DNA from: a virus
Direction: 5' to 3' (one strand)
Length of the DNA stretch: 64,000 nucleotides
IMG/VR virus record: IMGVR_UViG_3300033148_003591
Coordinates: 1-64,000 of that record
The notes under the pieces were generated by a model. That model was given only the letters and a program-made list of their open reading frames with translations, did no database searches and was not told the origin of the DNA. Below, one piece after another: positions 36,101 to 52,512 of this stretch (the first letter of the stretch is position 1; each line of letters opens with the position of its first letter). The position numbers and the translations under genes are program-made.

Positions 36101-36222
36101 TAGATGGTGCTTCACTAAATGAAAGACGAACAGTTGAATCATATGCTGAAAAGATTAAATTAGTTACTAAACAAGTATTCGATAAATTATCACGTGAAGG
36201 AATAGCTTCAGGAGAATATTAA
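33172..36222 (+). CDS. tail tape measure protein (TP901-type core)
   Basis: Long helical protein; LQSAGLKSSRAGRLLR...IFGG core. Confidence 0.85.
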   Translation: MALNDSRKLVSLDFEVHGQKLYNTSLKSAEQATDRFGNKLGAIIAVQNTKLVKSTDAAGNSINKFSGTFTHAGGAVTTSTATMKKGIVSVTASTKNMGDSTKQATGMIGDFTRALKRVIIVVPLWATLRAVMQAVSSTIRDGFEQVKKFSKELLRASSVISGTVLTTGQALDVLKNSVKNLSKETGVSVDNLTNAFYRFGTVGNDFESSMDGMTASLRTSMAMQGDITSTAKTMALTYKLLGDTIDKSLSPQKQQLLMGAQLFKLYRTNAFEMNEMDAALRQFLPTANSANFTYAESISLLGALQSAGLKSSRAGRLLRTSVSKLVQNLGKLAGELGLSVNPEVESTFDVLMKVLGAIKKLDKEGKELPIQRLSVLKEIFGGVRTQEAGKAMVSVLKLIKKNLTDTGLDKNNILLREFAERIKTVTDDTSTLIERNKNLKKHIGEAFLIGITGSDDLNDALMQFNRTLEGTITNTKSFSEFLRIAFFALGTGLGVIDLARYDAQIINASKSINIMDKALRGIKGEDTRKGISETLRELVDPENQKALLASGQTLENIEQTIKSLIQASHRLEGKEAMELEVRMKINKTQIEKQIKEELFPIEITEDIKIPVSVETDITKYKEQLKLVQQELVDSTKMQLSEQKLTNFVKDRVKQHNKLVGLEEQGLQKISENFVLANALSGNYKKIIAAMGEVNANEEFLKKLVKEVFEYKKSTLQTEKDLAAIENKRLLEKLAASGATELQIANKRVELATTDKELQEAIHRLELSRLKIISKRVQQIKSVTQSAIKIGIEEGDIDSFLQKFREGIRETMIDSLSTGLTESLMSFTGIGQTLGGVFATAEQKLPMALNTAFENGGNSVALKISNALSTAQFGGIGGGAGAGVGGFGVGTKGIKDAVEKGTVEAQKKSAFNMQNFQKLMGVGLLAFGLFGGKSKGTISQRYQTADAFNGVSGTSDPTTRSSTRAKITSIVVTNTFQLDGASLNERRTVESYAEKIKLVTKQVFDKLSREGIASGEY

Positions 36223-36620: not shown

Positions 36621-39600
36621 ATGCAAGCTATTTCCGCAGGTGAATACAATTCGTATAATTCGGATGTTGATAAAAATCGTAATCCTAACACTAGAGTTTT
36701 TGTGCAACGCAACTACAACTCGATTCCTTTTAGTGGAAAGGCATTACAATCAACTACAACGTCAGAACGATATCCCAAGCATGTATTAAATGCTGATGGA
36801 AGATTATGTTTAGTATTTTCTAAATATAATTCAACCAATAATAAATGGGATTTGTATTTTAAAGCTTCAAACATCACAAGAACTGCATGGAATTCAATAG
36901 TTGAGTTACAATCTGATGTAACAAATGATTATAATAATCCGGCTATTGTTGATATGATAGGTAGTGATTATTTAGGAGTAATGGTTAGTAGAGATGGCAC
37001 AGATTTATATTCATGTACTGTAAATACATCTGGTGTTATACAAACAGCGTTATCCGATACAACTATAAATGGAACAAATCCTTCAATAACTAAAATAGGT
37101 TCTACATACTGGCTGGTTTATGAAAGAAGTGATGTTTTATATTATAGAACATGTATTGATTTTATTACATGGAGTGCTGAAACAAATTTAAATACTGAAA
37201 CTGGATTAAGTAATGCTCACAATAATCCTTACATTTATTATGACACATCTGATAAATTGTGGTTAGTGTTTGAAAGAGTATCTGATGCAGCAGCTAATCC
37301 GGTAGTTAAAAATAGTTATTATATGAATTCCGATGATGATGGAAGTTCGTGGAATTCTCCTGTTGCGTTGACTACATTAACTGCTGGTGAGGGAAGTGCA
37401 ATTAAACCATCAATAGTTGATGCTGTATCTAATAGATATATTTCTTATACTTTAGAAAGACAAATACAGAATTTACAATATAATAGTGGAGTAGACGAGC
37501 ATATATTCATGGTGTCTGATAATGTTAATAATCGAATAGGCATGCTTGTTGGATATCTTTATAATAATTGTTTATTAACTATTTATGATAAAACCGCTAG
37601 TACATATGTTACACACGATATAACATCTTATATGACTGGTGGATTTGCAACTGGTTTGGCATATGATGAAACTAATAAAATATGGGTTATAGGAACTGAA
37701 CAGGATGGACTAATAGTATATGACGAAGTATCAACATCTTGGAGTCAATATACTAGCACATCAACGCCAGCATTACAATCAGATGAAGTAATTTTTCAAA
37801 AATTTGTAATAGAAGATAAAATAATTTATTGCGTTACTAAGGATGCATCCACATTTTCAACGGAAAAAATTGATTTAAATACAGCCACAATTACGGCATT
37901 AGGAACTTCTGCATTTCAAACTGTTTATCATTCTGAAACATTTATTAGTAATAATTATATAATTTCAGTTTTTAGAACCAATGCTGTTGGTGATGGAATG
38001 GTGGATTATCCATTAATTCATGTATTTAATAAATCTTCAGGAGCTTCTTTATACACAGCTAATATTGGTAATGGTTCTCAATATAAATTATCATCAGATA
38101 CTACCCATGCTTCAAGTATAGAGCATAGGCGTGCACAATTTGGGTGGGATAGTGCCAATAATATAATATATTCTTTGGCTCATGATACAAATGAAACAAG
38201 CGATAACGGAATAATTGCTTATTCTGTTGGAAATTCTGCTTTAACTTTTAACAAGTATTATTCACAATTAGATGGAAATCCCACAGGATTATTGCCAAGT
38301 CCAGATGTTTTAACGGATAAAATATCTTTTATTAGAGGTGTACAATTTAATACTTTAAATAAAAGGTTATACATTCAATCTTATACAACGTTAAATAGTG
38401 GTGGTGGTCAAGATGAATATTATTATAGTGTATTGAATACTAATATGCATCAAGTATTAGAATATTATTCTAATATAGATTCTGTTACATATCTGACCAA
38501 TTTTCCAGCAATAGATTCAGTTATCAACAAATTACTCTTTAGTACATCGGCTACATTTTTTGGTAATTATTGGCTTATTGAATCTACTGATGATAAAGAA
38601 TTAATTTTTCAAACAACATCCGGTAATTATTATTGGCATATTTTAACCACTGAATCATCAGACCAAAGAGTGTATTATAGAAAATCATCCAATGATTCTG
38701 ATTGGACAGCTCAAGCTTATTTAACGAATAATTCAAAAGATACATATGTAAATTTAGGTTATTCCGATTCACGTTTAAAAGCATTTTGGGATAGATTAGG
38801 AGATTCTATATATGAATTAAGGTGGGATGAAGATTTAAGTGGTGAATTAAATATTACAGAATATGTTCAATCGGTTGAACGATTAATGACAATTGAAAAT
38901 GAAGCCAATAGTTGTGATATTGTATTAACAGATGGTAGTGGGTTATTTAATCCCACAAATTATAATTCATTGTATTATGATTATTTACAGGAAAATAATA
39001 TTATTAGAATTGAAAAAGGAAATAATGGTGAATATACTCCATATTTTTATGGATTTATTGGAGCTGGAGATTCTGATTATATTCGTGGTGATGGTATATT
39101 TTATAGATTAACTGTATGGGATAAAAGTAAAAATTACTATAAAAATAAAGTTACTACAGGACTTTATCTCAATCAAACTGTTACCGCTATCGCTGAAGAT
39201 ATTGCCAGTACACATATGAATTTATCTGGTGGTGAATATGATTTTCCTACAGTTTCTACAATAATACCACAAGTCCAATTTATTGATGAAACGCCAATGG
39301 ATATATTACGAAAAATATTTCAGATAGATAATTATTATCCTGATTTTGATGAAGAAGGATTATTAATAGCAACATTAATAAATTATGATGCGTCTGTTGA
39401 TTTTACTTATTATAAAAATGGAACAGATACTGTTGCAGCCAATAAAGCTCCCGAAATGAATATTAATTCTGTGAATTTTTCTTGGGATGATAATGAATTA
39501 ATAAATAAAGTAACTGTTATAGGTCAGGAAGAGGCAACCGGAGAAGAAGAATTTGCTGAAGAATTTATGGGATTTTTAAATGGTGTTGCGGGATGGTTTT

Positions 39601-40298
39601 CAAAACGAAATCAATTTGAATTTTATTATTCTACTGATAAACAATTAAAAGCCAATAAACCACGATTGGTTGTTCAGGACAGTTGTGGAAATCAATTTTT
39701 TGGTGGTGGAGAATCATTAACAGTTGACGGTGGAGATTTATCGGTTGAACAAGACCATTGTATAGTAAATCAAAATGTGTCAAATTTACTAGCTGCTATT
39801 TTTACATTAATTTTTGTTGCAATGATTTGGTTAGCACTTTTTGGAGTTGGTATTGGAGCAGTTTGGGTTTATAATGGATTAGCATTAGTAGTTAGTTTGG
39901 GCTATACATTTTTAGGTCAAATAGGAAGTTATTATTATGAAATTTATGCACGACCTATTGGTGAACCAATTCCTGATTTAATTTATGCATCAACACAGGA
40001 TGATGATTTGATAGATAAATATAATGGTGAAAATGAACTTGAAATAGATAATCCGTTATTATCATCTTATGCTAAATGTAAAACTTTATCTGAAAATGAG
40101 TTACAAAAAGCAAAATGGTTTCGGTATAATATTCGCTTAAATATTATGGCTAATTTGGCGATACAACCAGGTGATGTAATTGAATTATATAATTCTACAT
40201 TTGGTTTGACACAAAAAATATATGTTAGAGAAATTAGTTCAACATATGCTCGTGGTAATTCAGATGTTGATGAAATAACTGGAGCACTTATAATTTAA
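36621..40298 (+). CDS. baseplate hub / central tail protein with N-terminal beta-propeller(s)
   Basis: Asp-box SDDDGSSW; hub-like C-terminus (FDEEG.L, INKVTVIG, IQPGDVI). Confidence 0.7.
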   Translation: MQAISAGEYNSYNSDVDKNRNPNTRVFVQRNYNSIPFSGKALQSTTTSERYPKHVLNADGRLCLVFSKYNSTNNKWDLYFKASNITRTAWNSIVELQSDVTNDYNNPAIVDMIGSDYLGVMVSRDGTDLYSCTVNTSGVIQTALSDTTINGTNPSITKIGSTYWLVYERSDVLYYRTCIDFITWSAETNLNTETGLSNAHNNPYIYYDTSDKLWLVFERVSDAAANPVVKNSYYMNSDDDGSSWNSPVALTTLTAGEGSAIKPSIVDAVSNRYISYTLERQIQNLQYNSGVDEHIFMVSDNVNNRIGMLVGYLYNNCLLTIYDKTASTYVTHDITSYMTGGFATGLAYDETNKIWVIGTEQDGLIVYDEVSTSWSQYTSTSTPALQSDEVIFQKFVIEDKIIYCVTKDASTFSTEKIDLNTATITALGTSAFQTVYHSETFISNNYIISVFRTNAVGDGMVDYPLIHVFNKSSGASLYTANIGNGSQYKLSSDTTHASSIEHRRAQFGWDSANNIIYSLAHDTNETSDNGIIAYSVGNSALTFNKYYSQLDGNPTGLLPSPDVLTDKISFIRGVQFNTLNKRLYIQSYTTLNSGGGQDEYYYSVLNTNMHQVLEYYSNIDSVTYLTNFPAIDSVINKLLFSTSATFFGNYWLIESTDDKELIFQTTSGNYYWHILTTESSDQRVYYRKSSNDSDWTAQAYLTNNSKDTYVNLGYSDSRLKAFWDRLGDSIYELRWDEDLSGELNITEYVQSVERLMTIENEANSCDIVLTDGSGLFNPTNYNSLYYDYLQENNIIRIEKGNNGEYTPYFYGFIGAGDSDYIRGDGIFYRLTVWDKSKNYYKNKVTTGLYLNQTVTAIAEDIASTHMNLSGGEYDFPTVSTIIPQVQFIDETPMDILRKIFQIDNYYPDFDEEGLLIATLINYDASVDFTYYKNGTDTVAANKAPEMNINSVNFSWDDNELINKVTVIGQEEATGEEEFAEEFMGFLNGVAGWFSKRNQFEFYYSTDKQLKANKPRLVVQDSCGNQFFGGGESLTVDGGDLSVEQDHCIVNQNVSNLLAAIFTLIFVAMIWLALFGVGIGAVWVYNGLALVVSLGYTFLGQIGSYYYEIYARPIGEPIPDLIYASTQDDDLIDKYNGENELEIDNPLLSSYAKCKTLSENELQKAKWFRYNIRLNIMANLAIQPGDVIELYNSTFGLTQKIYVREISSTYARGNSDVDEITGALII

Positions 40299-41879: not shown

Positions 41880-42647
41880 ATGAAAAGTAAGATATGTACA
41901 AAATGTGGTAATGAAAAATTGTTGGATGAGTTTTCTCTCGATAAACGACGCCCAAATGGAAAAGGTTCTTGGTGTAAAGAATGCTGTAATATTCCGTCTA
42001 AAAAATATCGCCAAAAACATAAAAAAGAACGTAAAGAATATTATTTAGTACATAAAGAAGAAAATAAAGAAAAAGAAGCAACACGTCAGAAAAAATGGTA
42101 TAATGAACACAAAGAAGAAATAAAAATTAAAGGCAAAAAATATAGAAATAAGCATAAAGATGAAATGAAAAAACAAAAGAAAAAATATCGTGAAGACCAT
42201 AAAGAACAAATCGCTATTAAAGTTAAAAAATATCAACAGGAACATAAAGAAGAATTACGCAAACTGCGAAATAAACATTTAAAGAAAAGACGCAAAACAG
42301 ACCTGCGGTTTAAAATAATAAGTAATTTAAGAGGATGTGTTAGACAAACAATCAAAGACAGCACAAAAACTCTGTCCACAATGTTTCTAATAGGTTGTGA
42401 AATTGACTACTTATTGTTTCATTTACAAAGTCAGTTTAAAGAAGGAATGTCGTGGGATAATTATGGGCGTGGTGATAATGGTCTAAAAGAATGGCACATA
42501 GACCATCGTAGACCATGCGCCAGTTTTGATTTAAGCAAACCAGCAGAACAACAGAAATGCTTTAACTACAAAAATTTACAACCTCTTTGGGCAAAAGATA
42601 ATTTATCCAAAGGTGCTAAGTGGAATATTAAGGATTCTGAGAATTAA
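41880..42647 (+). CDS. HNH / endonuclease VII-like nuclease (family B) with N-terminal Zn finger
   Basis: KICTKC...SWCKEC; WHIDHRRPC; NLQPLW. Confidence 0.8.
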   Translation: MKSKICTKCGNEKLLDEFSLDKRRPNGKGSWCKECCNIPSKKYRQKHKKERKEYYLVHKEENKEKEATRQKKWYNEHKEEIKIKGKKYRNKHKDEMKKQKKKYREDHKEQIAIKVKKYQQEHKEELRKLRNKHLKKRRKTDLRFKIISNLRGCVRQTIKDSTKTLSTMFLIGCEIDYLLFHLQSQFKEGMSWDNYGRGDNGLKEWHIDHRRPCASFDLSKPAEQQKCFNYKNLQPLWAKDNLSKGAKWNIKDSEN

Positions 42648-43350
42648 GTTTTGTTCTTATGTAACTTCTCAATTTTTCTTGATTATAATTATATCCCTCA
42701 ATTTTTCTAAGAAAAGATATAACACTTATTTTTTCAAATACATTAATTTGGCTGCTAGCAGATACATTATAGATTTTCAATGACTTTTCTGTAGTATACG
42801 GCAAAAAAAGTTTATTCAAATCTGTATTTACATAGTAATCACGGTATCCACTTCCACGATGCATTGTGCTATAATAATGTGTATTACCTGTTTTATTTGC
42901 ATCAAACCCCAATAAATAAATACTTCCACTAAAATCTAACAAATAGCACGCCAAACTTAATGCTAAATGACCAGTGAGTGCATGGCAGTAGAAGCCTTTT
43001 ACGAGACTTTTATCACGAAACCATGTGTGACTGTGTGCCTTTATAAAAACCGTGTTTAAAAGTTGGTTTTCTAGCGATTGTGTGGTATTTAAAGCGATAA
43101 TAAGGGGTAATTTTGATAGATTTTCACGGTGAACCGGATTAAACTTGTTCCAGAGCTGAACCGTTGGGTCAAAATCAACCTTACCTTGATAAAATTCACC
43201 ATCTGCACACACTAATGCTGTTGGTGTAATATCTTTATATGAGTGATTACAAGCTAATGTGAATTTAGTAGATAGTGTTTGCCAGATATTTTGTGGGAAC
43301 TTAGATAGACTATTTCCGCCACCGATGATTATAAGCTGTTTGGGGTTCAT
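42628..43350 (-). CDS. Maf/DUF115 or GT42 (Cst-II)-like transferase
   Basis: IIGGGNSL...ACNH...TG..AL.LA...IYLLGFD...HYY. Confidence 0.6.
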   Translation of the reverse strand: MNPKQLIIIGGGNSLSKFPQNIWQTLSTKFTLACNHSYKDITPTALVCADGEFYQGKVDFDPTVQLWNKFNPVHRENLSKLPLIIALNTTQSLENQLLNTVFIKAHSHTWFRDKSLVKGFYCHALTGHLALSLACYLLDFSGSIYLLGFDANKTGNTHYYSTMHRGSGYRDYYVNTDLNKLFLPYTTEKSLKIYNVSASSQINVFEKISVISFLRKIEGYNYNQEKLRSYIRTKLNSQNP

Positions 43351-43943
43351 AATAATTTACCCCATTGAGTAGCCATAGCTTTAGCTATTCCAGGAAAAGT
43401 TTTACTTCTATTTATCTGTCTGTTTTTTCCACCTTTATTAAACCAATTTCCAGCAAGTTTGGTTGATTCAATTTTTTCAACTATATTGGTGGGTTTTAAT
43501 AGCGGAAGATTTTTTAACCATAAACAAGTTCTTTTTGAATATGGATGACCATGTTCAAAGGGTTGTATTATTTGAGTATATTTTGGTAAACCGAATATTC
43601 TACTTGGTATTGGATTTTCGATACAAATTTTTTTGATATTTGCATTTAATAATTTTATAAAAAATTTAACAGATTTATCACCAAATCGTTTTCTTTTTAA
43701 ATTTAATTTTCCTTTTGGATAAAGATGTCTTGCACCTGCGTTACTAATGTATGTACACGGAGGATGTGCTATCATCATATCCCACCCTTTATCTAGTTGT
43801 TCTAAAACATTTCCTAAAATATGCCATTCAGGATGTCCTCCTGAACAAGGAAGTATATCACAAGAGTATGCTTCTATTCCTAATTTCCGCATTTCTATTG
43901 TTACTACTTGGGATTCTTCACATGCTATTAAAATTCTGCTCAT
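43347..43943 (-). CDS. short C5-cytosine-type DNA methyltransferase
   Basis: LIACEES, HPPCT, IENP, K.TCLWL, RSKTFPGIA.AMA.QW. Confidence 0.75.
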   Translation of the reverse strand: MSRILIACEESQVVTIEMRKLGIEAYSCDILPCSGGHPEWHILGNVLEQLDKGWDMMIAHPPCTYISNAGARHLYPKGKLNLKRKRFGDKSVKFFIKLLNANIKKICIENPIPSRIFGLPKYTQIIQPFEHGHPYSKRTCLWLKNLPLLKPTNIVEKIESTKLAGNWFNKGGKNRQINRSKTFPGIAKAMATQWGKLL

Positions 43944-44135
43944 GATTCACCTACATTTATAGCTAAATATTTAATATTATCAGAATGTTTGAAAATTATT
44001 TTCTTCTTTAAATCTATAGCCATTTGTCTTGCTTCTTCTTCATTTTTTGCATCTATTGTAATATCACCTTCGGCTATTACCTTAAAAACGTGAACATGAA
44101 ATTTTTTACTCATCTTTTCTCCTTGTATGTTTATA

Positions 44136-44519
44136 TTAAATGTCCTCCTCTTTATAAGAAGTTATTTTAGTACCCCATTTATATTCTAAAATTTTAAATT
44201 GTTTTTTAATGGCAAATTCCTCGGCTCTTTGTTTTAAAAGTTTTAACTGGTCGGTTGAAGGTTTTTCATAGAAAAAAATATCAAGACTATTACTATCATT
44301 AGTATTAAGAGAAACAGGTCTATTACATCCATGTTCATCGGGTACATAAGGATTGACTATTTCTTCAAAGATATCCTCGAATTTATTAATGAAATCTTCA
44401 GCTTGGTTTTTACCTACTTCACAATCTCCGTATTTACCAGTACAATAAGCACATAGTTCTCTTTCAAAATTACCAGCATAGGAATCCGTTTTAATTGTTA
44501 AATAATATTCTTTATCCAT
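44136..44519 (-). CDS. hypothetical protein
   Basis: ORF; YAGNFERELCAYCTG motif. Confidence 0.7.
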   Translation of the reverse strand: MDKEYYLTIKTDSYAGNFERELCAYCTGKYGDCEVGKNQAEDFINKFEDIFEEIVNPYVPDEHGCNRPVSLNTNDSNSLDIFFYEKPSTDQLKLLKQRAEEFAIKKQFKILEYKWGTKITSYKEEDI

Positions 44520-44532
44520 TTTGTTATCTCCT

Positions 44533-44817
44533 CTATTTTTTACTTATAAATATGTTTACATCTTTAGGGCGGAAATCAGTTATCAATTCTCCTTGTGGAG
44601 TTTCAAGTCTACTATGAATTACACCGTTGACAGCAGCCCGTAATGTGATATTTAAATCACCAAAGACTTTTCCTTCTACTGCATCATATCTAATATTTGT
44701 AATTTTACTTATTGATGATTTTAAGGTTTTATTCTTTTTTGCAAATTCTTTTAAACAATCATCTGTGAACTGTGTTTGACCATTATTTTTTGATAATAAC
44801 ACCACTGTAGCTATCAT
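44533..44817 (-). CDS. hypothetical protein
   Basis: AAGGAG RBS. Confidence 0.65.
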   Translation of the reverse strand: MIATVVLLSKNNGQTQFTDDCLKEFAKKNKTLKSSISKITNIRYDAVEGKVFGDLNITLRAAVNGVIHSRLETPQGELITDFRPKDVNIFISKK

Positions 44818-44831
44818 ATTATTCTCCTTTA

Positions 44832-45167
44832 TTAAAATTTTTCATATTTATTTCCACAGTATTCCCAATCAGACCAATTTATATCAATCAAATGTTCATC
44901 ACCCAAAAAGAAACTTCCTTGTTCCCATTCTATAGTTTTAATAACGTCATAATCACTAAGCCATCTAAATTGGTCTCCATTATAAATCTCTCTATTATCT
45001 TTATCATTAACAGTAGTATATTGTAGTAAAGTAGTAATACCATTTGGTCTATAACTCCATCTTTCTCCAACAACTTCCCATTTAATATCGCCAGATTCAG
45101 GCAGAATACCAACATTATATTGCATTCCTACTGTGTTGTTTGTATAGGCATTAAATTTTAGTTTCAT
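44832..45167 (-). CDS. YopX-family protein
   Basis: LKF.A...QYT..DK...EIY.GD...GNKYE. Confidence 0.75.
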   Translation of the reverse strand: MKLKFNAYTNNTVGMQYNVGILPESGDIKWEVVGERWSYRPNGITTLLQYTTVNDKDNREIYNGDQFRWLSDYDVIKTIEWEQGSFFLGDEHLIDINWSDWEYCGNKYEKF

Positions 45168-45946
45168 TAAAAGCTCCTATAGTTATATTGAATCCATCCT
45201 TCACGATTATCAACCATACCATTTATCTTACGCATCTTTTGGACAAATTCACTATACAATCTATTACGCATTTGTTTATATTCATCTGGCTTATCATCTA
45301 TGTAGTCTGCACTAATTTTATCTGTATAGTAAACTTCTACATTGTTTTCTTTTAATTGGTTGAAAAACGTCTCATGTTCACATAATTTTAATTCATTATT
45401 CCAGGGATATTTTATTAATAATGCTGTAGGAGCTATAAAGAAATTTTTTACTATATCACACCGCTTATATTGTATTCCAGAAACTATTTCAAGGTCTCTG
45501 CATGGTCTATCTAAAATAAACTTACCCAATTCACGGTCTAACGTCATATCGTACTCAAATGGCTGTCTGTTGGCTAATTTCAGCCCAACAATAGCGTTAT
45601 TATTTCTGGTTTTTATAAAATCAATAATAGGCTCAAAATTATACTTATCAGTAAATGCTATACTGTCTGCTGAAATAAGGCAGTATTTAATGCCCATTTC
45701 GTGAGCTTTTTGAACTAAAAAGTTACGGGAGAAACTTAAACCACAGTCGTGAGGTAATCTATAAGCCAATGTTCGTTCATGTTGTAAACATTCTTTATAA
45801 TATCCACAAGAGCATTTCATTAATGTATTTTGGTCGCCAATTAAAAGATAATAGTTATCTTTCATATTTTTAATAATAGAGGTTGTTGTTTTATACACTA
45901 ATTCATTTCTTAAAAATGTAGTATAAATTATAGCGATTTTTTCCAT
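45167..45946 (-). CDS. GT-A fold glycosyltransferase (GT2-like)
   Basis: TTFLR, D.GLS.SRN.LV, DIVKNFF, W..ELKLCEH. Confidence 0.7.
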   Translation of the reverse strand: MEKIAIIYTTFLRNELVYKTTTSIIKNMKDNYYLLIGDQNTLMKCSCGYYKECLQHERTLAYRLPHDCGLSFSRNFLVQKAHEMGIKYCLISADSIAFTDKYNFEPIIDFIKTRNNNAIVGLKLANRQPFEYDMTLDRELGKFILDRPCRDLEIVSGIQYKRCDIVKNFFIAPTALLIKYPWNNELKLCEHETFFNQLKENNVEVYYTDKISADYIDDKPDEYKQMRNRLYSEFVQKMRKINGMVDNREGWIQYNYRSF

Positions 45947-46347
45947 ATCTTAAACTCCTCTAATGCTCGTTTGAAAGCTTCTCCATACCATCTTTTATTA
46001 GATTTAATTACTTTTTTTGTCCATTTTAAACTAAAGTCTGTTCTGAAATATTTGTATATAGTTTTTAAAGCAAACAATTGTGCTTTATATTCACTTATTA
46101 ACCTCTTGCTATGCATATATTTAACATGACCCAATTCATGAGCAGCGATTTCAACTATTTCCTTCGTATTACAATCGGCTAAATAATCAGGATGATAACT
46201 GATAGTATAATTATTTAATTTTTTCTTCCAAGAACACCAAGCAGTGTATTTTCTTAATTTATAAGGTTTAACTATTGGTCTTTTTATCTTTTCATATTTG
46301 CAAATTAATATAATTATAGATATAAAAAGATATATTTTATCTTTCAT
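45928..46347 (-). CDS. zincin metallopeptidase-like protein
   Basis: AHELGH...E..A..FA. Confidence 0.6.
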   Translation of the reverse strand: MKDKIYLFISIIILICKYEKIKRPIVKPYKLRKYTAWCSWKKKLNNYTISYHPDYLADCNTKEIVEIAAHELGHVKYMHSKRLISEYKAQLFALKTIYKYFRTDFSLKWTKKVIKSNKRWYGEAFKRALEEFKIWKKSL

Positions 46348-46526
46348 GAAAATATCCTCAATAAAAGTATGCACAAATAAAATCCACATGGAATACTTAT
46401 TATTAAAATAGCCGTTATTTTACATGCTTCATTTATAGTTTTACTTATATAGTTATCTGGAAATTTAGTTTTTAAATTAGCCACATCTTCTATAAATCCT
46501 TTATAGCTAGTCATTATTTTCTCCTT

Positions 46527-46706
46527 TTATTTTTCCACCAATCTATTTACAATCGTTACAGGTAAACTAAATTGTTCTAATGCATTATTATTTTTAAAAA
46601 TTTGAATGTTATAACCTCGTTCTGATACTATTGGATATACTTTTAATCTTATTTTACTTGGTTCAGGAAAAGCTCTATTCAAAATTTCTTCTAATTTTGT
46701 GTGCAT
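46527..46706 (-). CDS. small protein (59 aa), paralog of 47092-47307
   Basis: Manual translation MHTKLEEILNRAFP...; not in ORF track. Confidence 0.65.
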   Translation of the reverse strand: MHTKLEEILNRAFPEPSKIRLKVYPIVSERGYNIQIFKNNNALEQFSLPVTIVNRLVEK

Positions 46707-46709
46707 AGT

Positions 46710-47042
46710 TTATTTCCCCACTCCTATTTTAATTATAACAAACCCAATTAGACACATCGTTAATCCTACCCACTGTAAACAATTAAAACTTTTACATGCA
46801 CCCATTTTAATTAACGCCCCTGTAAAAGCTGTAAACATTATTAAATCATACAATAACGCATCAAACATCATATTCTTAGTTACTTTGGCTACAATTGTCC
46901 ATAATGGAATACAACCAGCAATCCACAACATAGTAAAATATCTCCAGTGAGATGCCGGAGCATTAACTTTTTGTGACAACCATGCTTGCCATATATACAT
47001 TACTATAACTGCTGGTATCCACCATAGATAGTGATAATTCAT
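46710..47042 (-). CDS. four-TM membrane protein, DMT/SMR-like
   Basis: 110 aa, four hydrophobic helices, W.GL..CLIG C-terminal helix; own promoter and RBS. Confidence 0.55.
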   Translation of the reverse strand: MNYHYLWWIPAVIVMYIWQAWLSQKVNAPASHWRYFTMLWIAGCIPLWTIVAKVTKNMMFDALLYDLIMFTAFTGALIKMGACKSFNCLQWVGLTMCLIGFVIIKIGVGK

Positions 47043-47060
47043 ATGTTTCTCCTTACTATA

Positions 47061-47088
47061 AGTATACCATACATTTGTATTTTGTCAA
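47061..47088 (-). promoter_or_regulatory. sigma70-type promoter
   Basis: GCCC-TTGACA-N16-TATACT followed by TATAGTAAGGAG. Confidence 0.85.
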
Positions 47089-47091
47089 GGG

Positions 47092-47307
47092 CTAGATATC
47101 ATTTTCTTCGTCTAGTTCAATCATTTTAGTTGCGCATGTTTCATTAATACTGAAATCGTCTTGAAATTCGTCACCTTTGAATATCTCCACAATATAGGCT
47201 TCATCTGATACATCATATCGAACATTCATTACAATTCCGCTTTCAATAGGAAATGCTCTATTTAAAATAATTTCTAATTTTCTACCTGTGGTCATTTTAT
47301 TCTCCAA
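47092..47307 (-). CDS. small acidic protein
   Basis: KLEIILNRAFP motif shared with 46527-46706. Confidence 0.65.
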   Translation of the reverse strand: MENKMTTGRKLEIILNRAFPIESGIVMNVRYDVSDEAYIVEIFKGDEFQDDFSINETCATKMIELDEENDI

Positions 47308-48133
47308 TCCTTTCTAAAAAATGGCAAGTGTTACATGGATATGATTTTTTACCATTTTTACTAACCGATTTTCTAAATTTATTAGCCTTTTTATTATTAA
47401 AAATACTGAATATAGTTTCATTTTTATCTGTTAATTCACCCAAAATAAATTGTTCATGTTCTTTCCAATCACTTCTTAAATTACAGCACGGCATAACAGA
47501 GCCATTATAGTCAATGTAAATACCATTAGTGGGTATAAAACATGGTGCAATTCTGTGTGGGGGTTTATTTAATGCTTTTAATATTCCTCCTCTATTTGAA
47601 CCAACATTTTTAAAATTTCTATAATATATTAATATTTCCATATCATTAAAATTAGTATCTTTTTGAATAAGTTCACTATTTATTTTATGACTATTAGGCT
47701 TCAATTTTAGTTCGGCAAGCTTATCACCAATCATGTCTAATACTTTTTCTTGTTTATCAGTATATATTTGAATATTTAAACTCCTTAATCCGTTGTCGTA
47801 TAATTTAGAAATTTTATTTGCTGTTAAAAAATCGCCATTAGTATTAAAGTGTAATGTTGCATTTGGAAGATTTATTTTTGCATAATTTAATCTATTATAA
47901 ATTATATCATCTGCTAAAGGTTCATTATACCTAGAATATGTTATTATTTTATTATAGTTTATTTCTTTTAAATTAGCGATTATTTTATTATATGTACAAG
48001 TATTCATAAATATATTTTTAGAATTTCTATCAATTATTGAATTAGGACAATGCCAGCACTGTCTATTACAATAAGAAAATGTTTCTATTTCTATTAAGTT
48101 TACAAGTTTTTTAAATCGTTTCATATTATTCAT
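47297..48133 (-). CDS. radical SAM protein with SPASM/twitch domain
   Basis: CNRQCWHC; EPL; TNG; C...I...G.VMPCC...C..C. Confidence 0.85.
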   Translation of the reverse strand: MNNMKRFKKLVNLIEIETFSYCNRQCWHCPNSIIDRNSKNIFMNTCTYNKIIANLKEINYNKIITYSRYNEPLADDIIYNRLNYAKINLPNATLHFNTNGDFLTANKISKLYDNGLRSLNIQIYTDKQEKVLDMIGDKLAELKLKPNSHKINSELIQKDTNFNDMEILIYYRNFKNVGSNRGGILKALNKPPHRIAPCFIPTNGIYIDYNGSVMPCCNLRSDWKEHEQFILGELTDKNETIFSIFNNKKANKFRKSVSKNGKKSYPCNTCHFLERIGE

Positions 48134-51100
48134 GATTTCTCCAGTTTTTCCCGTATAACTGTTCAAGATACCCTATAACTGGCATTGGTACTGATAGATT
48201 GCATCCATATAAACTTCTTGGTTTAGTATTTTTTGTCCATTTTAAAATATGAACTTTTATGCCATTTTTTGCATATGTATTTTTTTCTTCATCATGTATA
48301 AACATTTTTTGCCTTAATAGGTTACTATTAATCTCTGGTGCTGATATAAAAATATCTGTTGTTGTACTTGATAATTTTGATTTTTTAATAGCTTCAAGGC
48401 ATGTTCTTTGAAGTAAACAACAATCAGGAACTATATTTATAAAATCTAAAAATACACTTTGTATATTATCACTTACTTTAGGTACAATATTTGTTGTCTT
48501 TTTTTCTACTTCAATTATATCGGCAACTGGATAATTAACCAATTCGTATGGAGTTTGGTATCTAATATGTTTAACACGTTCTAATGTGCTACTACCTCTT
48601 GAAGTCATTTTCATTTCGCACTCCATATAAAATTTATTTTTTAAATAATGCAAGAATTTTTCAACCAAATGCATATCGGGTTTTCTTGGATGATGAATAT
48701 ATTTTTTAAGTTTTCTTATACTATTCGCTTTTTTATTTATACCTTTAAAATTATAGAAACACTTACCTACAGTTATTACAGGTTTTCCCCACATCATTGC
48801 TTGCAACCCAATACCAGAATTTATTGTTAAAACTATATCCGAATATTTAATGCAGTCTTTATAATGATATTTATCTACGATTTTAACATTTTTACTTTCA
48901 GTCATTAATGTTGTTTCCACCGGATGATTCTTAACTAGAAATTCTACATTTCTCATACTGCATCCTAATTCCTTTATAATGTTTTGAAAATTAGGCATAG
49001 ATTTTACCCAATCACTCCATAATAATATAGTTGTATCATTATATACCTGTGACGCAACGAAAACTTTAATTGTATCTTTAGATAAATCTAATTCTTCATA
49101 GAAGGTTTTTTTAGTAACAAATTCAGCATGCTGTTTTTCTAAGCTACATTCATCCTCAGTGAAAGATTTAATATATTCTTTAATTTGTTTCTTTTCATAG
49201 GCTGTTATTTTAACATCCCAATTTTTCTTTTTATATGAATCACTAAAGTATAAAAAGTTGTGCATATCTAAATAAATGCTTCCAGGTAATGCTCCACGTT
49301 CAAGTACATAAGCTAATTTTCCAGCTTCTTTAAATTCATGCAACAAATCGTATTTCCATTGAAACTTCTTTGCTATTGTATAACTATATGTATTCCAAAG
49401 AATTAATGCTTTATTAGATTTTTTAACTCTTTCTATATTTCTGTCTAATTCAATGTCTAAATATTTGCTTAATTCTACAACATAAGGGTGTCTAACTTCA
49501 GGACTGATAAATTGTATTTTTTTGATTTGACTAATTTTATCTTGTACTATTTTAAATTTAGGATTATTTTGGTCTGTAAAGAAATTTTTTTCTTTATTAG
49601 AACATTCTTCAGTAAATAAAGACCCAAATGCTCCTAATAAGGCATACAGGTTTAATTCCGTTGGGTTTTTTTGTAGAATCTTCCATAATTTTACAGGAAC
49701 TTTGGTATATTTATCTTTATTATTTTTAGTTCTATCCATCATATTATAATATCTTTGAAATATTGTGTAGTTTGACCAATAAGGACAATGGTCTCCCATA
49801 ACCCTTCTGTCGTTTATTGTAGTAAAACCGTCATTTAGCAGTGCGATTTTTTGAGTATTTTCGCAGCATAAAGTATCTTCAAAAGGATACTTTTTTAATA
49901 TTTCCGTTCTATTAATTCTAACGCCTTTAATTTTTCTATTCATATGTACATCATACAGGGAAAATAATAATGTAGAAACAGTTGGTTCATTTTTTAACAT
50001 ACTTGTGTGCATATTATTAACAGCTTCAGGTTTTAAAATGATATCTTCATCACATTGGATAAAGTATGGTGTTTTACACCTAATCATCATTTGATTAAAT
50101 GCGTCTGACATGGGTGCAATATCTTCTATTATGTCTAGTTTAAAATCAACGGTTTGGTTTTTTAAAGCCAATAGACATGCTTGATAATTTTTTTTCTTTT
50201 CAACAGCAATTACAAATACAGTTACATCTGAAGAAATATCTTGTTTTCCCTTATCCCATGCCCGCACTACATTTTTTGTTCTATAATGAATATCTCTATT
50301 CGTCATTCCTTTTTTTGATAAATCTATATCAGTATAAAATTTCGTGCCAGGAAAAGGTTCAAATTTATACCACCCTTGTACAGATAATTTATTTTTTTTA
50401 ATAAAATCCAAAGTCATTTGTCTTTCTTCTTCTGTTTCTCCTGGTATATGATGCATAAAAGATGCTCGAACTGGTAACTTAATTGAACGTGCTATGTCTA
50501 TAGTATTTTGATTGTCGGCTACTGTGTTACCTTTGTTTAATATTTTTAGCACCCTATCACTTCCACTTTCAGCACCAAATCTAACTTCGTAATAACCCAT
50601 CTCTTTCATTTTTATAGCCGTTTCTAATGTAAACACACCGGCTCTAACAAAACTTCTTATCTTTAACCTTTTATGCCATCCTCTTGCCATCCACATTTCA
50701 TGAATTTTATTAAAGCGTGGTTTGTTTACGATAAATAAATCATCATAAATGTACAATGTTTTAATTTGAGGATATTTTTTAATTAAGAAATCAACTTCTT
50801 TTATAAAATATTCAGCACTATGGAATCTTGTATTACCCCAAAAAACTTGTGAGCTACAAAAATTACAAGAAAATGGACACCCTCTTGAAGTGAAAATAGG
50901 AATAACATCTGTACACCGACCTCGTTCTGGATAATTTAATGTATCAATATTTTCAATGTTTGGTAATTGAATAATTTTTTCGCTTGGGTTATTTTTTATA
51001 ATATGATTTAAAGCTTGTTCACCCTCACCTTTTATTATATGTTTAAATGGGTATTTTTCTAAATCTTCCCAAAGCGTACATTGTCCACCAATAATGATAG

Positions 51101-51314
51101 GAATGTTTTTAATTGATTTTAGAATTTGAATAGCTTCTTGAATACCCCAAGCATTAGAAGATAATCCTATATAGTCACAGTTTTTTAATTCCTTTGGGTT
51201 TCTAATTAATTCAATATCAGCATTACAATTGGTTTTTAGATAACCTATGCTCAATGGATATTCATTGTCAACAGGGTCTTCCCACCCACACTGATACATT
51301 TTAATTTTTTTCAT
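48126..51314 (-). CDS. multidomain protein: B12-binding radical SAM + GT2-like + KpsS/KpsC-like + LicD-like
   Basis: SRGCPFSCNFC, GAESGS; QCDED; ERG, QVYND, KNHP, TINSGIGLQAMMWGKPV; C-terminal P.P..YLEQLYG.NW. Confidence 0.75.
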   Translation of the reverse strand: MKKIKMYQCGWEDPVDNEYPLSIGYLKTNCNADIELIRNPKELKNCDYIGLSSNAWGIQEAIQILKSIKNIPIIIGGQCTLWEDLEKYPFKHIIKGEGEQALNHIIKNNPSEKIIQLPNIENIDTLNYPERGRCTDVIPIFTSRGCPFSCNFCSSQVFWGNTRFHSAEYFIKEVDFLIKKYPQIKTLYIYDDLFIVNKPRFNKIHEMWMARGWHKRLKIRSFVRAGVFTLETAIKMKEMGYYEVRFGAESGSDRVLKILNKGNTVADNQNTIDIARSIKLPVRASFMHHIPGETEEERQMTLDFIKKNKLSVQGWYKFEPFPGTKFYTDIDLSKKGMTNRDIHYRTKNVVRAWDKGKQDISSDVTVFVIAVEKKKNYQACLLALKNQTVDFKLDIIEDIAPMSDAFNQMMIRCKTPYFIQCDEDIILKPEAVNNMHTSMLKNEPTVSTLLFSLYDVHMNRKIKGVRINRTEILKKYPFEDTLCCENTQKIALLNDGFTTINDRRVMGDHCPYWSNYTIFQRYYNMMDRTKNNKDKYTKVPVKLWKILQKNPTELNLYALLGAFGSLFTEECSNKEKNFFTDQNNPKFKIVQDKISQIKKIQFISPEVRHPYVVELSKYLDIELDRNIERVKKSNKALILWNTYSYTIAKKFQWKYDLLHEFKEAGKLAYVLERGALPGSIYLDMHNFLYFSDSYKKKNWDVKITAYEKKQIKEYIKSFTEDECSLEKQHAEFVTKKTFYEELDLSKDTIKVFVASQVYNDTTILLWSDWVKSMPNFQNIIKELGCSMRNVEFLVKNHPVETTLMTESKNVKIVDKYHYKDCIKYSDIVLTINSGIGLQAMMWGKPVITVGKCFYNFKGINKKANSIRKLKKYIHHPRKPDMHLVEKFLHYLKNKFYMECEMKMTSRGSSTLERVKHIRYQTPYELVNYPVADIIEVEKKTTNIVPKVSDNIQSVFLDFINIVPDCCLLQRTCLEAIKKSKLSSTTTDIFISAPEINSNLLRQKMFIHDEEKNTYAKNGIKVHILKWTKNTKPRSLYGCNLSVPMPVIGYLEQLYGKNWRNHE

Positions 51315-52117
51315 TACATCCCTTCCATTATTTTTAAAGTTTGTTTAACTACGTTTTCCGCTTCTGAGAAATTAAGAGAATTACTACCGTCACATAAAGC
51401 TTTTTTTGGTGTTGGGTGAATTTCCATAAATATACCATTAACTCCATATGCTACTGAAGCTCTTGCTAAAGGTAAAATAAATTCTTTATTACCTAATGAT
51501 TTATTTCCACCAGCACTCGGTAACTGAACAGAATGAGTGCAATCAAATACTACAGGGTAATATTGTTTCATTATTGTAAACCCTGTAAAATCTACTACTA
51601 ATCTATGATACCCAAAAGAAGTTCCACGTTCTGTAAGTATAATATTAGTATTATTTTGGCTTTCAATTTTTTTAATTACATGTACTATATCATCTGGAGC
51701 TATAAATTGCCCCTTTTTAATATTAATTATTCTGCCTGTCTTTGCTAACCCTCCAACTAAATCTGTTTGTCTGCATAAGAATGCGGGTATTTGCAGAATA
51801 TCTAAAGGTGATTTTTCTACCTCTTTTATTTCTGCTACAGAATGAACATCTGTTAATATTGGCAAATCGTATAAAATTTTTACTTGAGTTAAAAGTTCTA
51901 TACCTCTTTTAATGCCCAAACCTCTATAAGCATCGTAAGAGGTTCTATTAGCTTTATCATAACTAGCTTTAAAAATAAACTGACACCCATATTTCATTTT
52001 TAATTTTTTGACAAATCTTGCAGTTTCAAATAAAATCTTGTAATTTTCTATAGCACAATTTCCTACAATAAAAAATAATTTTGATTTTTTTATTTTGTCA
52101 TACAATTTATTTTTCAT
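51314..52117 (-). CDS. kdsA: 3-deoxy-D-manno-octulosonate 8-phosphate synthase
   Basis: KASYDKANRTS, QIPAFLCRQTDL, KKGQF, ERG, DCTHSVQ, MEIHP; N-terminal Cys suggests the metal-dependent class. Confidence 0.93.
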   Translation of the reverse strand: MKNKLYDKIKKSKLFFIVGNCAIENYKILFETARFVKKLKMKYGCQFIFKASYDKANRTSYDAYRGLGIKRGIELLTQVKILYDLPILTDVHSVAEIKEVEKSPLDILQIPAFLCRQTDLVGGLAKTGRIINIKKGQFIAPDDIVHVIKKIESQNNTNIILTERGTSFGYHRLVVDFTGFTIMKQYYPVVFDCTHSVQLPSAGGNKSLGNKEFILPLARASVAYGVNGIFMEIHPTPKKALCDGSNSLNFSEAENVVKQTLKIMEGM

Positions 52118-52512
52118 AGGTTTAATAATCCTTTATCTTTTAACTCTGGTATAGGTATTTCTGCACCATCAATAATTAACCCACCCTGAATCTGTCTAAT
52201 TATATCATCTGGATTTATATCAGTGTCAATTGTATAAGCTATTTCAATTAGCACAGAATTTTCTAAAGCTTTAAATTTATGCACTAATGGTGGATGAACT
52301 TCAAAAGTTTCATTTATGCCTAATACTTTAGTACCAAGTTCACTTATAATTTCCACTTTACCAGAAACCAATATAAACTTGTTTATTTTTTCTTTGTGAT
52401 GATGCACAGAGCAAAAACTATCTCTCTTTAACTGCAATAAATCTATTTCGTTGTGATTATCAAGATGAATTCTTTGTTTAATACCCCAAATTTTAAAACT
52501 ATTATTTGACAT
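52114..52512 (-). CDS. cupin, sugar isomerase-like
   Basis: K.WG, CSVHHH..K...F....G, H.F.A.....LIE, D..R. Confidence 0.7.
   Translation of the reverse strand: MSNNSFKIWGIKQRIHLDNHNEIDLLQLKRDSFCSVHHHKEKINKFILVSGKVEIISELGTKVLGINETFEVHPPLVHKFKALENSVLIEIAYTIDTDINPDDIIRQIQGGLIIDGAEIPIPELKDKGLLNL

Follow-up and report, generated by a model that had tools for sequence, protein, structure and literature searches.

The phage genome described here, complete at 102 kb, carries a cluster of genes that we read as a phage-lineage-specific assembly line for a Kdo oligosaccharide. We give this explanation as a whole a probability of about 0.45, and its parts differ in strength. As the phage has its own KdsA, four sugar-transferase modules (two of the Kdo/sialic-acid type) and two radical-SAM enzymes, a modified, Kdo-containing chain is probably made; that its acceptor is a glycolipid of the host envelope is put forward tentatively. 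We infer donor, product and acceptor from gene identities, folds, catalytic motifs, linkage and the absence of pathway genes. The original prediction, of a Kdo glycosylation and tailoring cluster acting on virion proteins, the host surface or DNA, holds for KdsA, the ulosonate-type folds, the co-occurrence of the genes and the missing kdsB, kdsC and kdsD, but not for the DMT-like label of one membrane protein, and DNA is now disfavoured as acceptor. The features of the window, a stretch of 64,000 nucleotides (positions 1 to 64,000 of IMG/VR record IMGVR_UViG_3300033148_003591), are as follows, with the basis of assignment in brackets.

33172-36222, tape measure gene, upstream of the cluster
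36621-40298, baseplate-hub-like gene, upstream of the cluster
42628..43350, minus strand, MptE-fold transferase (Maf/GT42/WaaZ-like), 240 aa (AF2 model, fold matches)
43347-43943, phrog_757, interspersed, unrelated small gene
44832-45167, YopX, interspersed, unrelated small gene
45167..45946, minus strand, GT-A glycosyltransferase, GT12-like (B4GALNT1-like), 259 aa (family profile)
45928..46389, minus strand, membrane-anchored HExxH metallopeptidase-like protein, 153 aa (DUF2201_N, 1e-5)
46527-46706 and 47092-47307, two paralogous small proteins
46710..47042, minus strand, hydrophobic protein with about four membrane segments, 110 aa (hydropathy scan and sequence)
47297..48166, minus strand, radical SAM/SPASM enzyme, 289 aa (Pfam SPASM 5.3e-11, Radical_SAM 7.3e-8)
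48126-51314, minus strand, four-domain fusion, 1062 aa (Pfam Radical_SAM 1.5e-18, Capsule_synth 4.9e-15)
50250..51314, minus strand, fusion residues 1-355, class-B (B12-type) radical SAM domain (Radical_SAM, 67.9 bits)
49530..50249, minus strand, fusion residues 356-595, GT-A (GT2-like) glycosyltransferase domain (invariant DED motif)
48540..49529, minus strand, fusion residues 596-925, retaining beta-Kdo glycosyltransferase domain, KpsC/KpsS/WbbB-like (Capsule_synth and fold)
48129..48539, minus strand, fusion residues 926-1062, LicD/FKRP-fold domain (fold match to FKRP)
51314..52117, minus strand, KdsA, Kdo-8-phosphate synthase of the metal-dependent type (NCBIfam equivalogs)
52114..52512, minus strand, cupin of the PMI/lyxose-isomerase type, 132 aa (Pfam MannoseP_isomer, 1.2e-5)

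The predicted single-strand cluster was recovered in full, with every ORF in place on the minus strand between 42628 and 52512 and with YopX and phrog_757 among the unrelated small genes said to lie between its members. It does sit beside the end of the tail operon: the tape measure and baseplate-hub-like genes are upstream, and the last tail-module genes and the cluster converge head-on. A tyrosine recombinase encoded in the genome is compatible with a temperate lifestyle, which counts in favour of a glycolipid acceptor.

The product of 51314..52117 is, by its sequence, a genuine KdsA. The call of an intact kdsA is borne out by two NCBIfam equivalog cut-offs, both exceeded (NF003543, 344.7 bits against 242; TIGR01362, 324.4 bits against 314), and inspection finds the Cys in GNCAIE, the His in CTHSVQ, the Glu in EIHP and the Asp in CDG. 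In a tree the protein groups with four other phage KdsAs, which suggests a single ancient acquisition. The nearest Atlas clusters of the cupin are viral cupins with Cupin_2, Lyx_isomer and MannoseP_isomer, and homologues adjoin kdsA in the distant relative G002 (46% identity) and share a record with kdsA in G003 (56%). The cupin is a candidate sugar-phosphate isomerase, possibly converting Ru5P to A5P; its PMI/lyxose-isomerase-type signature and its linkage to kdsA are the two grounds on which it may be the source of arabinose-5-P. The lack of kdsB, kdsC and kdsD, first remarked on for the window, extends to the complete genome, and a Gram-negative host must therefore finish CMP-Kdo. KdsA would strengthen Kdo synthesis at its committed step, perhaps fed with arabinose-5-P by the cupin, and host KdsC and KdsB would complete the donor.

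The 1062-aa fusion has four domains. The best NCBIfam matches of the first domain are all B12-radical SAM families (PhpK at 9.5e-26, ApyD, HpnJ and BchE), each far under the family cut-off; the alignment contains a CX3CX2C motif, and the domain exists as a stand-alone protein in other phages. In the GT-A domain D422, E423 and D424 are invariant in the alignment; PF00535 matches weakly at 49917-50108 and is carried by the homologue P0005. The third domain had been predicted to be KpsS/KpsC-like, and it combines a KpsC-type fold with the catalytic motifs of retaining Kdo transferases. Capsule_synth scores 56.2 bits (cut-off 20); Foldseek ranks KpsC, WbbB and KrkA at the top (E 4e-13), and the AF2 model (pLDDT 91.5) gives Z scores of 20.4 and 20.0 to KpsC, 15.4 to WbbB and 10.4 to KrkA, other GT-B folds reaching 12.1 at most. 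QXXXD (Q756, D760) is invariant across 28 sequences, D760 corresponds in the alignment to Asp165 of T. dismutans KpsC-C, the residue that forms the adduct, and the CMP-binding HP motif lies at residues 797-798; both elements are named as conserved across GT99, GT107 and GT140 (PMC12887879, PMC10148158). Two close relatives have NP in place of HP, and the general base and general acid could not be located; both points weigh against our explanation. The last domain matches FKRP (6kaj; Z 10.1, rmsd 2.6 over 119 residues) and recurs as the C-terminus of many multi-GT proteins; its alignment has neither a conserved DxD nor any conserved acidic residue, and it is probably degenerate and non-catalytic.

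KpsC/KpsS (GT107), the N-terminal module of WbbB (GT99) and KrkA (GT140) serve as retaining beta-Kdo transferases in the synthesis of capsules and O antigens. The phage domain shares their modified GT-B fold but is only 15-18% identical to them, and it lies mid-protein, fused to B12-radical SAM, GT-A and degenerate LicD-like domains. Unlike KpsC/KpsS systems, the complete phage genome has no KpsMT/ED exporter and no KpsF/KpsU partner.

The 240-aa enzyme had been called Maf/GT42-like, and its AF2 model (pLDDT 92.2) passes the fold test with Z 14.1 to Maf (5mu5) and 9.1-9.5 to Cst-I/CstII. An Atlas model gives TM about 0.7 to the WaaZ_KDO_III and MptE-like clusters, phrog_4603 sialyltransferase matches at 1.3e-4, and there is an N-terminal IIIGGGxS loop. 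No Pfam or PDB sequence profile matched, and hhalign against E. coli WaaZ was not significant. By its fold it is a candidate CMP-ulosonate (Kdo) transferase. It shares the MptE fold with WaaZ (CAZy GT73; waaZ mutants lack the KdoIII residue of LPS), CstII, Cst-I and Maf, but consists of the catalytic domain alone, without the flanking domains of Maf, and its family, unlike WaaZ, GT42 and Maf, is almost wholly viral in the Atlas.

For the 259-aa enzyme, predicted to be GT2-like, support comes at the level of the family: its own sequence falls below the PF00535 threshold, 11 of 16 family members match, and the family profile matches human B4GALNT1 (1.5e-15 over about 190 residues). B4GALNT1, the GM2/GD2 synthase (CAZy GT12), uses a sialylated acceptor; the phage enzyme, which differs in being soluble and only 259 aa long, regularly accompanies an ulosonate-type transferase. 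Its gene lies no more than 10 kb from that of the 240-aa enzyme in 18 of 49 viral loci, and in P0021 and P0022 it is fused to a GT-A plus Kdo-GT backbone.

A second radical SAM enzyme was expected and is present at 47297-48166, with a SPASM domain; homologous domains in P0064, P0075 and P0166 are fused N-terminally to three to four B12-radical SAM domains. It is from such gene fusions that we infer a tailoring role for the radical SAM enzymes. The 'four-TM DMT-like' protein is indeed hydrophobic, with two segments flagged by the scan and about four read from the sequence, but nothing supports the DMT label: no family matched at E<=5, nor was a homologue found in related loci. The metallopeptidase-like protein has an N-terminal hydrophobic segment and a HELGH motif, its gene overlaps the start of the next, and G003 and G014 each encode a homologue some 2 kb upstream of kdsA.

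Co-occurrence in relatives, proposed at the outset as a check, was found. G002 is collinear with the present phage at 22-54% identity; its cupin, kdsA and 240-aa genes are contiguous, the last directly downstream of kdsA, with a KpsC-like gene and three GT12-like paralogues nearby. G003 carries kdsA, the cupin, kdsB and two 240-aa paralogues. Homologues of KdsA (71%), the fusion (61%) and the 240-aa enzyme (71%) probably share one contig of 100,377 nt. Synteny in G002, co-occurrence elsewhere and domain fusions in other proteins suggest a coherent cluster. Of 50 records with the 240-aa family three have kdsA, against a handful of the 50,697 GenBank phage records, which speaks for our explanation; that the majority lack it weighs against.

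Giant viruses carry Kdo pathway genes. Cyanophage S-SCSM2R encodes KdsA and KdsB (PMC12801897), its KdsA being 36% identical to the present one; here, by contrast, kdsB is absent and kdsA is clustered with a second ulosonate-type transferase, radical SAM enzymes and a beta-Kdo transferase whose catalytic Asp is intact, in a phage of about 100 kb and not a jumbo phage.

In the proposed scheme the chain would be built by four modules, the GT-A and beta-Kdo domains of the fusion, the GT12-like enzyme and the Maf/GT42/WaaZ-fold enzyme. For the beta-Kdo domain we propose double displacement via Asp760; Kdo of the opposite anomeric configuration would probably be attached by the Maf/GT42/WaaZ-fold enzyme, and the SPASM enzyme and the B12-radical SAM domain of the fusion could modify the product, e.g. 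by C-methylation or oxidation. The acceptor, to which we commit weakly, would be a lipid-linked glycan on the inner membrane of the host, facing the cytoplasm, either LPS core or a capsule-type glycolipid. CstII and B4GALNT1 act on glycolipids, which favours such an acceptor, and the small membrane proteins inside the cluster are counted on the same side. Frirdich and colleagues reported in 2003 that overexpressing waaZ shortens the outer core of LPS and lowers surface O polysaccharide. The use of lipid-linked or glycan acceptors by KpsC, WbbB and KrkA (PMC12887879, PMC10148158) also favours a glycolipid. The same chemistry directed at a phage protein, most likely of the virion (tail or capsid), would give a particle coated with an acidic, tailored Kdo glycan, and this we consider somewhat less likely. 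Mycobacteriophages and giant viruses do coat their particles with other sugars. The enzyme families of the cluster, 86-100% viral in the Atlas, persist throughout a deep lineage of phages, always in the same genomic position next to the distal tail genes, and families that are almost exclusively viral and so long kept would suit a target of the phage's own, such as the virion, no less well; the tail-side position, common only to related phages, is not independent evidence. Structurally the 240-aa enzyme comes closest to Maf, a flagellin glycosyltransferase; the transferases are soluble, with no membrane segments by hydropathy scan and sequence, the phage has no exporter, and peptidases occur in the cluster here and in G002. 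However, no Ser/Thr-rich acceptor-like protein was found genome-wide (highest S+T per 40-aa window, 37.5%), transcription of the cluster goes with that of the DNA-metabolism genes, the structural module being on the other strand, and we know of no characterised beta-Kdo transferase that acts on protein. We lean slightly towards the lipid-linked host envelope glycan.

That KdsA is an auxiliary metabolic gene sustaining host LPS synthesis, with no phage-specific Kdo glycan and with transferases using other CMP-ulosonates or UDP-sugars, is improbable. In its favour, kdsA is missing from most phages that have the 240-aa and GT12-like cassette, kdsB is absent from the present genome, a fold does not reveal donor specificity, and a published interpretation of the cyanophage kdsA and kdsB is that they modify the host cell wall (PMC12801897). 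Yet only Kdo transferases are so far known to have the QXXXD and HP motifs with a KpsC-type fold, kdsA is the immediate neighbour of the fusion gene here (G000) and of the 240-aa gene in G002, and NeuB-type supply occurs in only one record of the 240-aa family, a distant one. It is very improbable that the radical SAM pair and the transferases turn a cluster-encoded peptide or protein, such as the two paralogous small proteins, into a RiPP-like glycosylated, methylated product. The RiPP enzyme ApyD is the second-best NCBIfam match of the B12-radical SAM domain, RiPP maturases are among the weaker matches of the SPASM enzyme, giant SPASM plus multi-B12-radical SAM fusions exist, and L010 has a small-protein homologue directly upstream of its GT12-like gene; but the radical SAM matches lie well short of the family cut-offs, the small proteins are unlike leader-core precursors and occur in only one other locus, and nothing links Kdo transferases to peptides. 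That the cluster attaches Kdo or a derivative of it to phage DNA, as a hypermodification against restriction, is scarcely credible, even with the cluster among DNA-metabolism genes and with radical SAM enzymes in some hypermodification pathways. Neither a ThyA-family pyrimidine hydroxymethylase, whose absence makes DNA glycosylation unlikely, nor TGT/DpdA is encoded in the complete genome; fold searches found no transferase resembling known DNA glucosyl- or arabinosyl-transferases, and to our knowledge no CMP-sugar DNA modification exists.

Against the envelope glycolipid that we prefer, the scan of the cluster proteins brought no priming phosphoglycosyltransferase to notice and the complete genome has no ABC-type exporter, so downstream steps would all be supplied by the host. 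Temperate phages with Gtr-type seroconversion, and mycobacteriophages that glycosylate their virions, likewise alter a cell-surface or virion glycan with phage-encoded transferases, but with one to three enzymes and common sugars that are UDP- or polyprenol-linked; we know of none that supplies or transfers Kdo or has radical SAM enzymes. Export of the glycan by host machinery would alter the surface of the infected or lysogenic cell, and if this is so, the masking of receptors could exclude other phages.

The virus record is a complete genome of 101,995 bp with direct terminal repeats and a G+C content of ~29%, the window being its first 64 kb. Every gene that the original prediction had listed for its Kdo glycosylation cluster was recovered at the same place, and the region reads as follows.

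Plus strand: packaging and structural module, including tape measure (33172-36222) and baseplate-hub-like (36621-40298) genes
From 42628 onward, minus strand: glycan cluster
42628-43350, minus strand: 240-aa protein of Maf/GT42 fold
45167-45946, minus strand: 259-aa GT12-like protein of the GT-A type
48126-51314, minus strand: 1062-aa fusion protein
Fusion residues 1-355: class-B-type radical SAM domain, CX3CX2C
Fusion residues 356-595: GT-A domain, invariant DED
Fusion residues 596-925: Capsule_synth domain
Fusion residues 926-1062: C-terminal domain, LicD/FKRP-type fold
51314-52117, minus strand: KdsA, matched by NCBIfam equivalogs
52114-52512, minus strand: cupin, PMI C-terminal cupin family match at 1.2e-5
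Past the cluster: DNA-metabolism genes (SbcD-like nuclease, ligase, exonuclease, A1-like DNA transfer protein)

No GenBank phage is near at the DNA level, a megablast search with the region being empty, and relatives of the A1-like protein are only distant (30-41% identity) and occur in phages with Gram-negative hosts. A scan for promoters and terminators gave no more sites than shuffled sequence, with a sole strong promoter-like site at 47088-47061. Tail module and glycan cluster are separated by the gene of an endonuclease VII or HNH-like nuclease (phrog_1035; 41880-42647, plus strand), which shares 20 bases with the end of the 240-aa gene and has a paralogue at 61303-61896 on the minus strand. 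The 198-aa protein encoded at 43347-43943 (minus strand) matches phrog_757 (‘DNA methyltransferase’) at 5.7e-54; it has an HPPC motif and no clear SAM-binding glycine loop, and no Pfam or NCBIfam model matched it. Beyond the window, at 88474-89298 of the genome (locus L065), lies a gene for a short tyrosine recombinase of 274 aa, with a Phage_integrase score (29.7 bits) barely above the cut-off and a homologue in G002, a distant collinear phage. Such an enzyme in a genome with direct terminal repeats makes a temperate as well as a lytic lifestyle possible.

The fusion protein consists of four parts (radical SAM, GT-A, Capsule_synth and C-terminal), and the third is the predicted retaining beta-Kdo transferase. 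Residues 590-1062 were modelled with AF2 from a 28-sequence alignment, at a mean pLDDT of 91.5. In a structural search against representatives, KpsC came out on top (Z 20.4 over 278 aligned residues with rmsd 3.4, and 20.0), followed by WbbB (Z 15.4), with generic or unrelated GT-B proteins at 12.1 or less. The top Foldseek matches were KpsC, WbbB and KrkA, with E values from 4e-13 downward, so that both fold checks bear out the KpsS/KpsC-like domain originally proposed for the fusion, KpsC ranking first. As modelled, the domain has the modified GT-B fold of KpsC and WbbB.

The catalytic motifs of retaining Kdo transferases appear to be kept in this predicted fold. Q756 and D760 are invariant across the 28 sequences, and the family profile places Q756-x-x-x-D760 on the QXXXD motif of T. 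dismutans KpsC-C and of WbbB, with D760 on Asp165 of the former. H797-P798 falls on the HP motif of KpsC and WbbB, which binds CMP; across the family P798 is invariant and 90% or more of the members have the His, with Asn instead in two close relatives. QXXXD and HP are conserved elements of the retaining Kdo transferases of families GT99, GT107 and GT140, and the Asp of QXXXD forms the covalent adduct with Kdo (PMC10148158, PMC12887879). The QXXXD/HP site of the fusion is thus judged intact from its sequence. An invariant glutamate at the end of a beta strand, E672, is a candidate for the general base. The N-terminal half of the domain, queried alone against PDB sequences, aligned to no solved chain on which the general base and acid could be placed.

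The radical SAM domain of the fusion has the cluster motif CPFSCNFC and scores 67.9 bits with Radical_SAM (cut-off 29.5); its best NCBIfam matches are exclusively B12-radical SAM families. The N-terminal cobalamin-binding domain PF02310 is not matched by the fusion at E<=0.01 and is carried by its relatives P0012-P0015. A PDB profile search with the GT-A domain gave no glycosyltransferase match, being dominated by the radical SAM domain of some homologues. Seven homologues of the GT-A domain (P0058, P0071, P0082, P0087, P0093, P0101 and P0112) are ~530-580 aa long; when they are included in the alignment, the resulting profile picks up SkfB- and viperin-like radical SAM enzymes at positions past the GT-A domain. 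A second radical SAM domain is therefore probable in at least some of the seven and, if true, would add a further recurring combination of this GT-A family and radical SAM chemistry. At the C-terminus, the modelled fold of residues 944-1062 is similar to that of FKRP's LicD-type catalytic domain (a middling Z of 10.1, rmsd 2.6 over 119 residues). No invariant acidic residue that could form a catalytic DxD was found in 926-1062 across eight homologues, so this domain is probably non-catalytic.

The supply of Kdo is represented by KdsA. The gene had been described as intact, and its product exceeds the curated cut-offs of two NCBIfam equivalogs (NF003543, 344.7 with a cut-off of 242; TIGR01362, 324.4 with a cut-off of 314). 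It contains GNCAIE, CTHSVQ, EIHP and CDG, which we take to be the Cys, His, Glu and Asp ligands of the metal-dependent, Aquifex-type class, and is accordingly predicted to be a metal-dependent Kdo-8-phosphate synthase making Kdo-8-P from A5P and PEP. In the Atlas, the neighbouring cupin comes nearest to protein clusters of viral cupins with the annotations Cupin_2, Lyx_isomer and MannoseP_isomer. In a quick maximum-likelihood tree, five phage KdsAs and one protein of a 112-kb contig form one group (SH-aLRT 91), and just one in 500 label shuffles clustered the phage proteins as tightly; coming from a quick rather than a careful search, the tree is compatible with a single old acquisition. KdsA carries no host signal, as its nearest cellular matches (50-57% identity) are scattered over several phyla (Elusimicrobia, Desantisbacteria, Acidobacteriota, Desulfobacterota and Nitrospirales). 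There is a precedent for virus-encoded kdsA and kdsB in cyanophage (PMC12801897).

A second transferase of ulosonate type may be the 240-aa protein. Its model (pLDDT 92) matches the glycosyltransferase domain of Maf (Z 14.1, 202 aligned), Cst-I and CstII (Z 9.1-9.5) and archaeal MptE (Z 8.5), and the Atlas's own model has a TM of 0.69-0.70 to WaaZ_KDO_III clusters. Searches by sequence (Pfam, NCBIfam, PDB profile) were empty, PF01973 remaining unmatched at E<=1, and hhalign against E. coli WaaZ gave a non-significant probability of 1%. The Maf/GT42 likeness first proposed for this protein therefore holds for the fold and fails for membership by sequence profile: the protein is, on its model, a fold-level relative of the CMP-ulosonate transferases (GT42, Maf, WaaZ) with no single proven family.

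Among the remaining products, the 259-aa protein is a member of a GT-A family; PF00535 is matched by 11 of 16 proteins of this family, whose profile matches human B4GALNT1 at 1.5e-15. The 289-aa protein is an enzyme of the radical SAM/SPASM type. The 110-aa membrane protein, originally described as four-TM and DMT-like, is hydrophobic but has no family match and is not conserved in relatives; a DMT or flippase label is not supported. Between the SPASM gene and the membrane-protein gene lie two small paralogues on the minus strand (46527-46706 and 47092-47307; 59 and 71 aa) that share an N-terminal L-E-x-I-L-N-R-A-F-P. A homologue stands immediately upstream of a GT12-like gene in an unrelated viral locus (L010 8160-8342), and the pair may serve the cassette as accessory proteins or as substrates. 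The gene at 45928-46389 (minus strand), which overlaps the start of the GT12-like gene, encodes a 153-aa protein with an N-terminal hydrophobic segment, a HELGH zinc-peptidase motif and a DUF2201_N match at 1e-5; two other phage records have homologues upstream of kdsA, at a distance of ~2 kb (L059 3027-3434; L061 8306-8638).

Relatives, co-occurrence and fusions all indicate that the cluster is one system. A scan of viral contigs with the single fusion protein was empty, and an alignment-based scan found relatives. G002 is a complete 95.8-kb phage in which 28 of 171 ORFs are common to our genome, at 22-54% identity and in the same order. At the same position it has contiguous cupin, kdsA and 240-aa genes together with a KpsC-like gene and three GT12-like paralogues, so that kdsA, KpsC-like and 240-aa genes do recur together, as the original prediction proposed to check. 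Its locus (L002 5912-16815) also holds a sulfation set (PHO4/PiT-family transporter, APS kinase and three sulfotransferase-like genes), besides genes for a class I methyltransferase, a phosphatase-like protein and two peptidases, one transglutaminase-like and one trypsin-like. The sulfation set stands in place of the radical SAM enzymes and points to a sulfated form of this glycan. Two further phage records contribute kdsA, cupin, kdsB and two 240-aa paralogues (G003) and kdsA (G014). Homologues of KdsA (71%), of the fusion minus its radical SAM domain (61%) and of the 240-aa protein (71%) are each listed on a contig of 100,377 nt, and it is solely from these matching nucleotide totals that we infer co-occurrence in the closest relatives (P0002, P0003, P0185, P0288).

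On a wider scale, 18 of 49 viral loci with the 240-aa family have a GT12-like gene within 10 kb; the C-terminal domain accompanies the family in eight, a B12-radical SAM homologue in seven, the GT-A domain in five and the Kdo domain in three. kdsA is present in 3 of 50 records with the family, and NeuB once, in a distant one. GenBank phages (50,697 records) gave 14 kdsA matches, of which ~4 look like real phage kdsA. Fusions join the same parts: P0021 and P0022 have GT-A, Kdo transferase and GT12-like domains on one chain, and the giant proteins P0064, P0075 and P0166 (1820-2331 aa) have one SPASM radical SAM domain and, after it, three or four B12-radical SAM domains in tandem.

KdsA would raise the supply of Kdo, perhaps fed by the cupin; the host would finish CMP-Kdo; the two ulosonate-type transferases (Kdo domain and 240-aa protein) would add Kdo and the two GT-A enzymes other sugars; and the radical SAM enzymes would tailor the product. 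The lack of kdsB, kdsC and kdsD, first noticed in the window, extends to the complete genome, which has no KdsB-type cytidylyltransferase (CTP_transf_3), KdsC or SIS-type isomerase. Completion of CMP-Kdo thus falls to the host, which points to a Kdo-making host of Gram-negative type. The complete genome also has no NeuB and no ABC exporter (ABC_tran nowhere above cut-off). A self-contained group 2 capsule (kps) system was rejected, as KpsMT-type exporter, KpsF and KpsU are all absent.

As to the acceptor, we lean towards a lipid-linked glycan of the host envelope. CstII and B4GALNT1 act on glycolipids. The KdoIII residue of LPS is missing in waaZ mutants, and overexpression of waaZ reportedly leads to truncation of the LPS outer core and to less O polysaccharide at the surface (so the title of Frirdich et al. 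2003). The acceptors of KpsC, WbbB and KrkA are lipid-linked or glycan (PMC10148158, PMC12887879). It is these acceptors, the waaZ phenotype and the glycolipid activity that favour the envelope. A phage protein is nearly as likely an acceptor: the transferase families are almost wholly viral and have been retained in phages since ancient times, the transferases are soluble and the phage has no exporter. No mucin-like acceptor protein was found. To the fuller proposal, that a radical-SAM-tailored (e.g. C-methylated) Kdo glycan is put on the virion itself or on another phage protein, we would give about one chance in four. DNA, also raised originally as an acceptor, is unlikely, as the complete genome has neither a ThyA-family hydroxymethylase nor TGT/DpdA. 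The envelope glycan remains, by a small margin, our preferred acceptor.

Kdo counts as a hallmark sugar of the Gram-negative envelope, and its retaining transferases are, to our knowledge, known solely from bacterial capsule and O-antigen pathways. No paper on beta-Kdo transferases encoded by phages came up in a literature search, and the 50,697 GenBank phage records gave no match to the Kdo-transferase domain or to the 240-aa family. Here a deep lineage of ~100-kb phages keeps its own Kdo synthase together with a Kdo transferase predicted to be catalytically intact, joined by a further transferase of ulosonate type and by radical SAM enzymes. For enzymology, the fusion offers a natural pairing of B12-radical SAM enzyme and glycosyltransferase, and a divergent sequence family with which to probe the double-displacement mechanism. 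A Kdo glycan on a phage protein, if true, would be the first Kdo-based protein glycosylation, made by a new phage-specific branch of retaining Kdo transferases, catalytically intact and fused to a B12-radical SAM enzyme. If placed on the host surface, the product would amount to phage-driven surface conversion of a new kind; if placed on the virion, to a new class of viral glycan.
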